A program made the position numbers and the translations under genes. Shown here in pieces: positions 53,728 through 58,399 of a stretch of DNA of 64,000 bases. This DNA comes from an uncultured Bacilli bacterium (GTDB lineage: Bacteria > Bacillota_I > Bacilli_A > RF39 > UBA660). Within the stretch, counting starts at the first letter, position 1; the number at the start of each line of letters is the position of its first letter. The DNA lies in NCBI GenBank assembly GCA_944363885.1, contig CALVVO010000001.1:4865-68864 (forward strand). The letters run 5' to 3'. Under the pieces are notes generated by a model, which searched no databases, had not been told where the DNA came from, and was given only the letters and a program-made list of their open reading frames with translations.

Positions 53728-54835
53728 AATATTTTAATTTAAATTCATCTCTAAATTCAACAAGAGTATCTGTTTCAATATTAGATCTAATATCTTCAAT
53801 AAGTTTTGTTAAAAACCTTATATTATGTATTGATAAAAGTCTCGCACCCAATGTTTCATCACTTGTAATTAAATGACGTATGTAAGCTTTGGTATGATTT
53901 TTACAAGCATAACAGTCACAATCTTCCTCAATAGGCGTAAAATCAGTTTTATATTTATTATTTCTTAAATTTATTTTGCCATGTCTAGTATAAGCATTTC
54001 CGTGTCTAGCAAGTCTAGTCGGACTAACACAATCAAATATATCAACTCCACGCATCACACCTTCAATTAAATCTATTGGATCACCTACTCCCATTAAATA
54101 CCTAAGCTTGTCTTCAGGCAAATATGGTATAGCGTAATCCATTGCTTTATACATAATCTCTTTACTTTCACCAACACTTACTCCACCAATACTATAACCA
54201 TCAAAATCCATTTCCACAGTTTTAATCGCACTTTCGCGTCTCAAATCTTCAAATTCTCCGCCTTGGACAATTCCAAATAATGCTTGAGTATCACTTTTTT
54301 TATGTGCGTCTTTTCCTCTTTTAGCCCACCTAAGAGTTCTATTAATACTATTTTCCATATACTCATGAGTACAAGGATAAGGAGGACATTCATCAAAACT
54401 CATAGCAATATCTGAAGCAAGTTTATTTTGCACTTCAATACTTTTTTCAGGATTAAGAAATAAACGCTCGCCAGACAAATGACTTTTAAAATAAACTCCT
54501 TCTTCACATATATCTTTTTTATCAGCCAAACTAAAGACTTGATAACCACCAGAATCAGTTAATATAGGCCCATTTTTATAATTCATAAATTCATGCAAAC
54601 CACCAGACATACAAACTACATCTTCACCAGGCCTAAGCCACAAATGATAAGTATTGCATAAAATAGTATCAGTTTTAACACTAATTATATCATCAGAACT
54701 AAGAGTCTTAACAGTAGCTTGAGTACCAACAGGCATAAACATAGGAGTTTTATGAGTACCCCATTTAGTTTTATATTCACCTAACCTAGCTTTAGTCTTA
54801 CTATCTTTTTTTAGCACTTTAAACTCTAAATCCAT
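53708..54835 (-). CDS. tgt: Queuine tRNA-ribosyltransferase
   Basis: 376 aa from [11 protein letters not shown] (RBS GGTGA). Motifs [34 protein letters not shown] and zinc motif [13 protein letters not shown]. Confidence 0.9.
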
Positions 54836-54896
54836 TTCAAATTCACCAAATATATAATACCAAAAATAAAACAATATTACAATTTCATAATATTGT

Positions 54897-55784
54897 TTAT
54901 TTTTCATCTAATTTTTGCAATTCCAAACTTAATCTATGCAATAATCTTCTATTTGTATTTAACCTTCTAGTTCTACCCGGAACAGAATTTACCTCACAAA
55001 CATAATATTCTTTTCCATCATACAAAATATCAACAGCACAATACCACAAACCTATTGCATTAGCAGCTTTAACAGCTAACTCTCTAACTTCTTCTATTCT
55101 ATCTTTTAATCTTAGAACCCTTGCCCCTAAATTAAAATTTGTTCTAAAATCATTGTCATTTACTCTAATAGCTGAACCCTGATAAAAACCATTAATTACA
55201 TAACTTCTTAAATCTTTACCTTTAGATGTATCTATAAATTCTTGAAACATGCATATGCCTTTTAACTGAGAAATTGCATTATTAAAATCTTTTGCATTAT
55301 TAATTAAAAATATATTTTTTCCTTTAGAACCAAATGAAGGTTTTATAACAAATTTTTTACTCCCCATTAACAATGCAACATCTAAATAATCAAAATCTTT
55401 TCTATTAACACCACAAGAAAAATATATAGTTTTAGGTATTTTTATATTATTTTTAGTTAGAACCTGATAAGTTTTAAGCTTATTTCTAGAAATAGACATT
55501 GATTCAGCAGTATTTAGCACTTTTATTCCATTAAGTTCAAACTGTCTTGCCAAATATAAATCATATTTTTTAAAAAATACTATTTTAGGAAATTCTTTTA
55601 ACTCTACTTTATTCAAAAATATTTTATTTGTCGCCCCATCTGTAACAATACTAAATTCTGAATCTGAAAAATATTTAACATCTAAATTTAATTTATTTTT
55701 TGCATAATTAACCAAAGTATTTATTGTACCCTTTTTTAGTTTTTTAATATACATTTCCCTACTATATATAACCCAAATATCCAT
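54897..55784 (-). CDS. RimK-family ATP-grasp ligase (alpha-L-glutamate ligase-like)
   Basis: 295 aa from MDIWVIY (RBS GGAGGA; the upstream gene's TGA overlaps this ATG as TGATATG). ATP-grasp motifs include [47 protein letters not shown] and [11 protein letters not shown], colinear with E. coli RimK. Confidence 0.75.
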
Positions 55785-55785
55785 A

Positions 55786-57366
55786 TCATTCCTCCATATC
55801 ATTTTTAATTTCTTGGACTATTTTATCACTTGGTACAATTATATCTGCGGTTTTATTATTAAATCCTATAATTACAAATCCATTTCTATTTAATTCATCA
55901 AATACTTTATCACTTTTTATTTTATCTATAGCAGTATCATATATTTTGTTTAATGTTACAAAAGATTTATAATCAAATTCTATTTGATTTCTATCATAAT
56001 ATAGAGCATTTAAAATTTTTTTAATTAACTCAACCAATTCAATAGAATTCAAACTAGTTTTAACATTCCTAACTTCAACTAATTTTTTATCTAAATAGTT
56101 AACCCAAAGATATTTACTACTTATTGTTCTTTGATATTTACAATACTCTTCAAAATCCCAAATAAATTTGTACTGCTTGTAAATATTTTCTTCAAAATAA
56201 TTTTCTTTTTCACTTAATAAAGCCATTAACTTTTTATGAGATTCAATTGGATTTGTAACATCATATTGATTAAAATTCATATGGATGCCGCAATTTTTTT
56301 CAGAAGATACTTGTATTATTCCTTTTGAAAAAATCATTATTTCTTGTAAATTATTCCAAAATTCATAAATTTCTTCTACTTTTAAAGGATCCAAAACTAT
56401 CTCAAATGAATAGTCTCCTATAATTGTACCATCTTTAACAAAATATCCATTTTCACCAACTAATTCTTTTATATTTGCAAGTAATTTTTTTGTAAAAGAA
56501 TATTTATCTCTTTCAAGAGTAACGGAAACCTCTATTTCTAGACCAACTTCGTCATAAGCAATTTTTTCTTTTAATTTTCTTTCATAACCAAATGCAGGTT
56601 TTATATCCAATACCTTATCAAATTTTGCTTCATAATCAAATTTATTTTTTCTAGTATTTCTAACAACTGCTTTTTTCCCCTTTTTATCCTTAAAAATAAC
56701 AGAAGAAAACTTAGATTTATTTTCTAAATAATTAATAACTCCAAGTATGGCATTTATTAGGTTAGAAACCTGCGCTTTATTCTTATGAAAATTTCTATTT
56801 TTCTGACCTATCTCTAATTGAATTGATTTTACACCAGTATCTTTATGTATTCTAGAACATATAGTCCTATTATGCGATCTATAAATTTTATCAATCGTAA
56901 CAGTCCCTAAAGAATATTTATTTAACTCTTTTACAATATCTTTTACAAGTTTTTTATCATTATTAACATTTTTAAATTCATTTACTCCAATATCTAAATC
57001 AGTAATTTCATTTATAGCTAAAGAATGAATATCAATAACATAATCAATATTATTACTTCTCACATATTTTTTTAAATATTCATAATAAAAATTATTCTCT
57101 TTATCATAGTTTGGGTCATAATCAATCTCTTTATTAATATACATAACATGGCAATTTGATAATTCTGAAATAACCCTAATTAAAGAATATGTCAAATAAT
57201 CTTTGCTTTTATTTTCACCATTTTTTTCGTGAGTAAAAGTATGAGGCGCTGACAACAAAATATTATTTGTTCCTTTTTTACAGTTTATTTCCTCAAATTT
57301 CACTAAATTTTTATCTTTTCTATGACTTTTTAAAAGTTTTCTAAATTCTTTTAGCATTTTCACCAT
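55786..57366 (-). CDS. Uncharacterised 526-aa protein, possible N-terminal amidohydrolase-like domain, partner of the ATP-grasp ligase
   Basis: It overlaps the queA stop by 26 nt and is coupled to the ATP-grasp gene. The N-terminal approximately 210 aa carry ILLSAPHTFTHE...YVIDIHSL...IQLEIGQ. The C-terminal approximately 300 aa have no recognisable motif. Confidence 0.55.
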   Translation of the reverse strand: MVKMLKEFRKLLKSHRKDKNLVKFEEINCKKGTNNILLSAPHTFTHEKNGENKSKDYLTYSLIRVISELSNCHVMYINKEIDYDPNYDKENNFYYEYLKKYVRSNNIDYVIDIHSLAINEITDLDIGVNEFKNVNNDKKLVKDIVKELNKYSLGTVTIDKIYRSHNRTICSRIHKDTGVKSIQLEIGQKNRNFHKNKAQVSNLINAILGVINYLENKSKFSSVIFKDKKGKKAVVRNTRKNKFDYEAKFDKVLDIKPAFGYERKLKEKIAYDEVGLEIEVSVTLERDKYSFTKKLLANIKELVGENGYFVKDGTIIGDYSFEIVLDPLKVEEIYEFWNNLQEIMIFSKGIIQVSSEKNCGIHMNFNQYDVTNPIESHKKLMALLSEKENYFEENIYKQYKFIWDFEEYCKYQRTISSKYLWVNYLDKKLVEVRNVKTSLNSIELVELIKKILNALYYDRNQIEFDYKSFVTLNKIYDTAIDKIKSDKVFDELNRNGFVIIGFNNKTADIIVPSDKIVQEIKNDMEE

Positions 57367-58399
57367 CTCCTATTTTATCTGTAATAAACATCGCATCACC
57401 AAAGCTAAAAAATCTGTAATTATTCTTTACTGCTTCATTATATGCTGACAAAATAATTTCTTTACTAGATAATGCACTAACAAGCATAAGTAATGTACTT
57501 TTTGGCAAATGAAAATTAGTAATTAATGCGTCAACTGCTTTAAATTCATATCCAGGATAAATAAAAATATCAGTTTCTTCCCTAATTGCTTTAAATTTTC
57601 CGTATTTACTAATGTTGCTTTCTAACGTTCTAACACTTGTAGTACCAACACAAACTATTCTTCTCTTTTCACTTTTAGCTTTATTTAACTTAGTAGCAAC
57701 TTCTTCCGTTATTTCATACTCTTCTGAATGCATAACATGTTTAGTAACATCTTCTACATTTACAGGTCTAAATGTGCCAAGTCCAACATGCAATGTGATA
57801 TAAAGTACTTCTATTCCCTTATTTTCAATTTCTTCTAATAATTCATTTGTAAAGTGCAAACCAGCAGTTGGTGCTGCAGCACTACCATTTATTTTAGAAT
57901 AAACTGTATTATATCTATCTTTGTATTTAAGTTTTTCATGAATATAAGGCGGTAATGGCATAGTGCCTATTTTACTTATTATTTCTAAAAATACGCCTTT
58001 ATAATCAAATTTAATATGAGTTATTCCTTCTTCTTTTATATCTATTACTGTCCCAGTTAACTCGTCAGAAAATATTAATTTAGTTCCAATTTTTAATCTT
58101 TTTTGTTTTCGTGCCAAACACTCATAAACATCTTTATCTATCTCTTTTAAAAGCAATATTTCAATCGATGCTTTAGTATCTTCTTTTATAGCATAAATTC
58201 TAGATGGTATAACTCTTGTGTTGTTTAAAACTAAAACGTCTCCTTTATTTAGATAATTAATTATATTAAAAAACTTCTCATGAATAATTTCACCAGTAAT
58301 TTTATCCAAAACTAAAAGCTTTGAAAAACTCCTGTTCTCCAAAGGACTTTGCGCAATTAAATGTTCAGGTAAAAAATAATCAAAATCACTTGTTTTCAT
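57341..58399 (-). CDS. queA: S-adenosylmethionine:tRNA ribosyltransferase-isomerase
   Basis: 352 aa from MKTSDFDYFLPEHLIAQSPLENR with a typical QueA N-terminus. Full-length colinearity with QueA. Confidence 0.9.
   Translation of the reverse strand: MKTSDFDYFLPEHLIAQSPLENRSFSKLLVLDKITGEIIHEKFFNIINYLNKGDVLVLNNTRVIPSRIYAIKEDTKASIEILLLKEIDKDVYECLARKQKRLKIGTKLIFSDELTGTVIDIKEEGITHIKFDYKGVFLEIISKIGTMPLPPYIHEKLKYKDRYNTVYSKINGSAAAPTAGLHFTNELLEEIENKGIEVLYITLHVGLGTFRPVNVEDVTKHVMHSEEYEITEEVATKLNKAKSEKRRIVCVGTTSVRTLESNISKYGKFKAIREETDIFIYPGYEFKAVDALITNFHLPKSTLLMLVSALSSKEIILSAYNEAVKNNYRFFSFGDAMFITDKIGDGENAKRI

Follow-up and report, generated by a model that had tools for sequence, protein, structure and literature searches.

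A predicted hydrolase-ligase fusion and an ATP-grasp ligase between queA and tgt in uncultured gut Bacilli: a candidate accessory module of the queuosine pathway

Two genes separate queA from tgt in a 64,000-nucleotide (nt) stretch of DNA from an uncultured Bacilli bacterium (contig CALVVO010000001.1; the window), and the question raised by this locus is whether they take part in queuosine synthesis or only share its address. The first encodes a two-domain protein, here called X, and the second a RimK-family ATP-grasp ligase; together they are referred to as the cassette. The evidence tilts slightly towards X and the ATP-grasp enzyme forming an accessory enzymatic module that would be functionally coupled to the queuosine pathway and would work with QueA and Tgt. 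That the module acts on the 7-deazaguanine intermediate between Tgt and QueA, either tRNA-bound or as the free base, has in our judgment an even chance or marginally better. The functional link to queuosine suggested in the first-pass annotation of this DNA has good genomic support, from the position of the cassette at the junction and from a QueA::hydrolase fusion present in 21 independent loci.

The four genes are closely packed on the minus strand in the order queA, X, ATP-grasp and tgt, at the places where they were first described. queA (57341-58399) encodes a tRNA preQ1(34) S-adenosylmethionine ribosyltransferase-isomerase of 352 amino acids (aa), and tgt (53708-54835) encodes a tRNA guanosine(34) transglycosylase of 375 aa that begins MDLEF. 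Both proteins are canonical and passed the cutoffs of the equivalog hidden Markov models (HMMs): QueA matched Pfam Queuosine_synth PF02547 (6.3e-134) and NCBIfam QueA NF001140 (471 bits vs. a cutoff of 324), and Tgt matched Pfam TGT (9e-153) and TIGR00430 (503 bits vs. a cutoff of 307). The Tgt motifs DEC and GG-x-S-V-GE are those of a preQ1-type pocket. Gene X spans 55786-57357 and the ATP-grasp gene spans 54897-55784 (295 aa). The longest open reading frame (ORF) of X starts at 57366 and gives the 526 aa reported earlier; however, the sequence AGGAG (57367-57371) lies 9 nt upstream of an ATG at 57357 and 0 nt from 57366, and a 523-aa product is found in public gene calls on 11 contigs. Thus, ATG 57357 is the likelier start, X has 523 aa, and its overlap with queA is 17 nt rather than 26 nt. 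The TGA of X (55786-55788) had been thought to overlap the ATG of the ATP-grasp gene (55782-55784), but one base lies between them. The GGAGGA ribosome-binding site of the ATP-grasp gene (55790-55795) and the 61-nt gap upstream of tgt are as first given. The layout is not due to chance, because it was seen again in dozens of independent assemblies.

The partner of the ATP-grasp gene is a hydrolase-ligase fusion, which was not recognized in the first-pass annotation. The whole protein had no significant match in Pfam, NCBIfam, PHROG or PDB-sequence searches, and its identity rests on structure prediction, fold search and profile-profile comparison. The AlphaFold model of X, built on the family alignment (predicted local distance difference test, pLDDT, 86), consists of two domains joined by a disordered linker (residues 218-238). 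The N-terminal domain (56707-57357, minus strand; approximately residues 1-217) was modeled with confidence and is structurally similar to the zinc amidohydrolase fold of the N-formylglutamate amidohydrolase (FGase) and poly-gamma-glutamate hydrolase (PghP) type. Its nearest structures are enzymes that cleave N-acyl-glutamate or gamma-glutamyl amides. When single members of the X family were scanned with Pfam, 6 of 17 matched FGase (best 7e-6) and 5 of 17 matched Gamma_PGA_hydro (best 2.7e-4). The N-terminal domain of the window protein fell below the gathering score of FGase (PF05013; 15.7 bits vs. 28.9) and likewise below that of Gamma_PGA_hydro (PF05908). Residues H39, D109, H111, Q180 and E182 are invariant in the family and H70 and D81 are near-invariant; H39, D109/H111, E182, H70 and D81 are compatible with a zinc site. 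The domain differs from HutG-type FGase, PghP and YndL in being only 14-17% identical to them, in having HxxxH at the second-ligand position (where the PghP motif is, we presume, HxxxxE), and in being fused to QueA or to an amidoligase.

The C-terminal domain of X (55786-56640, minus strand; approximately residues 240-523) is predicted to be a divergent Amidoligase_2 domain (PF12224) followed by a small C-terminal alpha/beta module. In the window protein, it did not match the Pfam Amidoligase_2 model, and some family members reached E 5e-4 and 20.5 bits, below the 22-bit cutoff. Among its remote sequence relatives, four of the five scanned passed the Amidoligase_2 gathering cutoff, and profile-profile comparison with an alignment of nine remote relatives gave 98.7% probability (E 2.9e-16). 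The motifs GxExE, DG[ST], FEIVxxP, CGxH and ExR are aligned between the domain and its Amidoligase_2 relatives. The profile match, these signature motifs and the glutamine synthetase (GS)-like fold make up the likeness to Amidoligase_2; the differences are that the domain of X is too divergent for the Pfam model, that CGxHxN replaces CGxHxH, and that the domain is either fused to a zinc hydrolase or encoded beside a QueA::hydrolase fusion. Iyer et al. are said to have described Amidoligase_2 in 2009 as predicted GS-like COOH-NH2 ligases without tested function. Together, the FGase/PghP evidence for one domain and the Amidoligase_2 evidence for the other identify X, by predicted structure and profile similarity, as a zinc amidohydrolase fused to a GS-like carboxylate-amine ligase.

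The RimK-like character assigned to the second inserted gene was borne out. Its product exceeded the cutoff of the family HMM TIGR00768 rimK_fam (149.4 bits vs. 143.4) and matched Pfam RimK PF08443 (3e-30, 105.7 bits vs. a cutoff of 21). It was aligned to RimK-family structures (7qyr, 8e-18; 4iwx, 3e-16) and showed similarity to 5zct (approximately 3e-16), and its PHROG match was "ribosomal protein S6 glutaminyl transferase" (1.5e-21). A check of the catalytic residues against 7qyr found VIKP, QEFI, DLR, FRTNxxxG, VDIL and EVNSxPG conserved, with the nucleotide-binding and metal-binding motifs intact. No equivalog model was reached in NCBIfam; the best specific models, all with scores far under their cutoffs, were MptN (107 bits, cutoff 350), LysX (96 bits), CofF (83 bits, cutoff 300) and RimK NF007764 (71.7 bits, cutoff 331). 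The enzyme therefore resembles the alpha-L-glutamate ligases RimK, CofF, MptN and LysX in its ATP-grasp fold, in its score above the family cutoff and in its ATP/Mg motifs, and it differs from them in lying under every equivalog cutoff, in following an amidoligase/hydrolase gene and in preceding tgt. RimK-family enzymes extend a terminal carboxylate with L-Glu. By analogy, a terminal carboxylate would be the expected acceptor of the cassette enzyme, and L-Glu the typical amino acid added.

The strongest tie between the cassette and queuosine is a gene fusion. QueA and the N-terminal domain of X form a single ORF of approximately 557 aa, in a shared stop-to-stop frame, in 18 loci; in these loci, the amidoligase domain is encoded by its own gene, which is followed by the ATP-grasp gene and then by tgt. 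The fusion was read directly in two loci (L029 and L022), and in L022 the fusion protein matched Pfam Queuosine_synth at residues 10-346 and, weakly, FGase at residues 436-527. Three more metagenome contigs, 84-86% identical to each other at the nucleotide level, also have the fusion, which brings the total to 21 loci. QueA is approximately 60-70% identical among them, and the fusion is kept across a whole clade of cassettes. An assembly artefact was ruled out, since the 21 loci come from different studies and assemblers.

Three cassette architectures were distinguished. In type A (the window and L010-L012), QueA is followed by X with both domains joined and then by the ATP-grasp enzyme. In type B, which is the majority, the QueA::hydrolase fusion is followed by separate amidoligase and ATP-grasp genes. 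In type C (L004 and L025), QueA is followed by an amidoligase gene, by a hydrolase domain joined to a second, degenerate amidoligase copy that has lost the ligase motifs, and by the ATP-grasp gene. The two fusions, QueA with hydrolase and hydrolase with amidoligase, tie the three together in the Rosetta-stone sense. One type B locus (L022) also carries an extra stand-alone FGase-like domain (5284-5970) directly upstream of queA, with an 11-nt overlap with the queA start.

The X family is rare. A word-indexed search of 5.8 billion proteins gave 45 clusters, and an exhaustive profile search of 1.84 billion representatives gave 48 representatives; the members are named only "hypothetical protein", and none has an annotated Pfam domain. 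In a scan of one genome per GTDB species, 35 genomes encode X, all of them metagenome-assembled genomes (MAGs) of uncultured low-GC Bacilli or "Tenericutes" type from gut and rumen. Locus contexts were obtained by mapping five proteins onto the fetched loci. The order queA-X-ATPgrasp-tgt was found in 25 of the 35 species genomes, with some of these loci interrupted by contig ends, and X lies at the junction without the ATP-grasp gene in two others (L013 and L042); a further locus of the latter kind (L001) was found separately. The queA-tgt junction is thus the site of X in 27 of the 35 genomes, whereas for a neutral insertion homologs had been expected in other contexts only. Four further metagenome loci also carry X at the queA-tgt junction. 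No relative of X was found in a viral-contig scan, and no PADLOC anti-phage defence model matched X, the ATP-grasp enzyme, the type B proteins or the alternative cargo of locus L047 described below.

Within the fetched loci, all ATP-grasp homologs lie between X and tgt except in one distant locus (L009), the only place where an ATP-grasp homolog occurs without X. Five database homologs (39-67% identical) appear to sit on X-bearing contigs, judging from matching contig sizes. With queA-X-tgt loci that have no ATP-grasp gene (L001 and L013), the ATP-grasp enzyme is not the core of the inserted pair. In L009 (4388-7535), the closest relatives outside the cassette form a tandem RimK-like gene pair (36% identical) adjoining a FolC/Mur-ligase-like gene, an arrangement that hints at small-molecule glutamylation in a sister group.

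The similarity of the cassette did not track that of its flanks (Spearman 0.05 between flank and cassette identity). In two loci with type B cassettes (L029 and L020), CvpA, thioredoxin, QueA and Tgt share 92-99% identity with their counterparts in the window, but the cassettes share only approximately 44%, whereas two others (L010 and L012) have flanks 59-70% identical to the window and the same cassette type at 60-77% identity. Compared as nucleotides, L029 matches the window at 93-100% along most of the left and right flanks; it does not in a repeat-protein gene, in a few stretches of the right flank (83-92%) and where the flanks adjoin the cassette. Identity is 84-87% at 57401-57700 (queA 3' end) and collapses between 57381 in the queA 3' end and the tgt start at approximately 54900. 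Within the cassette it is lost or 55-73%, and it climbs back to 83% where tgt starts and to 96% further into that gene. This contrast between flanks and cassette indicates that the whole cassette was exchanged as a unit through recombination in the flanks. The three architectures have evidently been swapped between lineages yet kept at the queA-tgt junction. Within a type, the ratio of nonsynonymous to synonymous substitution rates (dN/dS) was 0.04-0.24 for all three cassette domains, compared with 0.05-0.14 for queA and tgt; by this measure, the cassette genes are under purifying selection and functional. Fast diversifying evolution within a type was ruled out by the same values, and the large differences between cassettes are explained by lateral swapping of old cassette types.

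The repeat-protein gene mentioned above (59533-61452, minus strand) encodes a 639-aa Asn/Thr-rich protein with tandem repeats of 75, 66 and 111 nt (60151-60496 and 60646-61085). It is the only strongly divergent stretch of the left flank relative to L029 (53-75% at 60701-61150). Its gene call varies between strains with identical X, being 238 aa in L128 and 639 aa in L129, and the protein looks like a copy-number-variable surface protein.

Several observations weigh against functional coupling. queA and tgt are directly adjacent in 25 loci of relatives with Tgt 60-76% identical, where they are 6-97 nt apart and have the same downstream synteny. Because most close relatives have this empty junction, the cassette is accessory and dispensable for queuosine synthesis. 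Eight species genomes among the 35, and L003 as a ninth locus, have X elsewhere, alone and without the ATP-grasp gene, in the neighborhoods ffh-DUF2207-X, infB-X-lepA, thyA and murF-like. Cassette-bearing relatives do not differ from cassette-free ones in the base-pocket motifs FDEC and GGVSVGE of Tgt; an altered base pocket in cassette genomes was ruled out, since no alignment column cleanly separates the two groups. A search of the 64-kb window with Rfam gave neither a preQ1 riboswitch nor another RNA family related to queuosine, the sole match being a 6S RNA (RF00013; 45460-45638, minus strand; 47.4 bits vs. a gathering score of 46.4). Finally, the junction also accommodates other material. 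In L047 it holds an unrelated two-gene cargo instead of the ligase cassette (3649-4951), in L022 an 870-aa surface protein with an ALK/LTK glycine-rich domain and Listeria-Bacteroides repeats lies between the ATP-grasp gene and tgt (9450-12062), and in L042 there is a reverse ORF. Part of the positional conservation could thus reflect a permissive site and recombination through the flanks. The cargo of L047, whose Tgt is 74% identical to that of the window, consists of two paralogous proteins of approximately 214 aa with coiled-coil/transmembrane character, and neither has a Pfam or PADLOC match.

The alternative that best survives is built on these same observations. In it, the cassette is unrelated cargo in a permissive site, serving for example glutamyl-peptide or small-molecule metabolism, and it spread by flank recombination, with the QueA fusion produced by accidental loss of a stop codon. 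The empty junctions, the different cargo of L047, the extra insertions in L022 and L042, the stand-alone copies of X and the recombination breakpoints exactly at the flanking genes all agree with it. We nevertheless consider it unlikely: the QueA::hydrolase fusion is retained in 21 loci in which QueA has diverged to approximately 60-70% identity under purifying selection, and an accidental fusion would hardly last so long. In addition, three architectures are all kept at one junction, and the ATP-grasp homolog was seen nowhere else except in the distant L009. Since position can be explained by a permissive site and flank recombination, it is the fusion that carries weight, and functional coupling is favored because a long-lived, selected QueA fusion is hard to explain without a shared substrate or complex.

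If the module is coupled to the pathway, what might it do? The intermediate between Tgt and QueA is preQ1(34). The most specific scheme that we can offer, tentative and in our view less likely than not, is a reversible three-step glutamylation of the preQ1 side chain; its substrate, its amino acid and the sequence of its reactions are inferred by analogy. The target would be the primary amine of preQ1 (7-aminomethyl-7-deazaguanine), the sole ligatable group at that stage. In an ATP-dependent reaction, the Amidoligase_2 domain would first couple this amine to the carboxylate of an amino acid, with a carboxyl group of glutamate as the most plausible partner. The free carboxylate created in this way would then receive an alpha-linked glutamate from the RimK-family ATP-grasp enzyme, much as CofF and MptN act on the tails of cofactors. 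Finally, the FGase/PghP-like hydrolase, in most relatives a part of the QueA fusion protein, would cut the tail off and leave free preQ1(34) for QueA. Overall, preQ1 would carry a reversible glutamyl cap, which could trap or store scavenged preQ1 or gate the step from preQ1 to epoxyqueuosine. The optional presence of the ATP-grasp gene fits this scheme, because the enzyme would perform a second, extending step. The chemistry is coherent given the structures nearest to the hydrolase, the MptN and CofF scores of the ATP-grasp enzyme, the gamma-glutamylation of primary amines with the glutamate carboxyl by GS-like enzymes (PMC8998196, PMC11335346), and the wide tolerance of Escherichia coli TGT for preQ1 derivatives (PMC10103133). 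Phage nucleobase hypermodification clusters are also accompanied by amidoligase-domain genes (PMC8989533).

The ligases could instead act after QueA, attaching glutamate or another amino acid, maybe oligo-Glu, to epoxyqueuosine (oQ) or queuosine (Q) of the tRNA, for instance at the cyclopentene diol that carries the glutamate in glutamyl-queuosine, with the hydrolase trimming or reversing the addition and a new queuosine derivative as the product. This alternative shares the genomic basis of functional coupling (position, QueA fusion and conserved catalytic motifs), and glutamyl-Q, made by GluQRS, demonstrates that queuosine can carry glutamate. It is nonetheless improbable in our view, given that the groups available on Q and oQ are limited to hydroxyls and a secondary amine, whereas RimK-family and GS-like ligases typically amidate primary amines, and that a QueA-fused hydrolase suits a step before QueA at least equally. 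Tailing of a protein, in which the RimK-like ligase would polyglutamylate the C-terminus of S6 (as in E. coli), QueA, Tgt or a translation factor while X would add the first residue and remove the tail, draws on the TIGR00768 membership, the 4iwx and 5zct similarities, the PHROG annotation and the window X C-terminus (...DMEE), but is very improbable, as the RimK equivalog score is under those of MptN, CofF and LysX, no S6 or carrier-protein gene lies in the cassette or its immediate flanks, and the ATP-grasp gene is missing from L001 and L013. The C-terminal EE of X as a RimK acceptor was rejected, since it is not conserved in homologs.

Several other features of the locus were recorded. A promoter-like site lies just upstream of queA (58426-58454, minus strand; TTTACA, 17-nt spacer, TATAAT). 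It matches 11 of 12 positions and is the top match of the region, but the total number of matches equals the shuffle expectation in this AT-rich DNA, and as a real promoter it is only suggestive. The ATP-grasp/tgt spacer contains an AU-only hairpin followed by a U-run (54862-54904, minus strand; folding free energy -12.2 kcal/mol, z-score -1.8 vs. shuffles). It was not called by a consensus terminator scan and could be a weak terminator or attenuator before tgt. Downstream of tgt, a 104-aa protein with an N-terminal membrane anchor (53413-53727, minus strand) overlaps the tgt stop by 20 nt; it is kept at this place in several relatives (33-96% identity), has no credible Pfam match, and occupies the position that we take to be that of yajC in Bacillus subtilis. 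Next to the stand-alone copies of X beside ffh is encoded a small protein that is rich in Cys, contains CCEPR repeats and has many His residues in its C-terminal half; it is presumably of a type resembling the spore-coat protein CotD (L014 3266-3604, L015 8581-8895, L017 8500-8790 and L003 7581-7847). Many of the MAG records in which this low-GC, Bacilli-type locus occurs bear the title "uncultured Muribaculaceae bacterium" (L010, L012, L013, L018, L021-L026, L033, L034, L036, L041, L043 and L044). Muribaculaceae belong to the Bacteroidota, and the titles seem mistaken in view of the gene content and of the Bacilli/Tenericutes labels that close relatives carry.

Queuosine is a widely conserved modification of the tRNA wobble position and a microbiome-derived micronutrient of animals, and gut microbes salvage its precursors. 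An undescribed 7-deazaguanine species, namely amino-acylated (glutamylated) preQ1 or queuosine, in tRNA or free, built by the two ligases and cleared by the QueA-fused amidase, is possible, at somewhat less than an even chance. If true, this would add a new branch and new enzyme families to the pathway, and the three exchangeable cassette types might attach different groups. A QueA-fused cassette in many uncultured gut Bacilli is a concrete, clonable lead that could reveal a queuosine or preQ1 derivative or a precursor-trapping mechanism, and it would give a first functional handle on the uncharacterized Amidoligase_2 family. It is also unusual in the evolution of a tRNA-modification locus that three architectures are swapped, much like alleles, at a single address. 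In the collection of papers searched, none connected queuosine with ATP-grasp ligases, with amidoligases or with a fusion of QueA to an amidohydrolase, in agreement with the first-pass annotation, whose author was aware of no ATP-grasp/queuosine linkage; a 2024 neighborhood survey of queuosine salvage genes does not mention ligases.

The enzyme folds themselves are known, as is the decoration of queuosine with an amino acid, for which GluQRS is the one precedent; ligases and amidases of these families are not known to have been linked to the pathway before. To our knowledge, GluQRS (YadB) is the only described enzyme that places an amino acid on queuosine in tRNA. By putting glutamate there, it is a functional analogue of the activity proposed here, but its fold is unrelated, being that of a class I aminoacyl-tRNA-synthetase paralogue, its product is an ester made via Glu-AMP, its gene lies outside the queA-tgt operon, and it has no hydrolase partner. 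In combining ligases with a hydrolase that reverses them, the cassette would follow the same logic as glutathionylspermidine synthetase/amidase, PuuA/PuuD, and folate or F420 polyglutamylation with gamma-glutamyl hydrolase. Those systems belong mostly to other enzyme families, and none is tied to tRNA modification enzymes; such paired ligase-hydrolase amide systems, acting on an amine or a tail, serve retention, detoxification or regulation (PMC8998196, PMC10861534).

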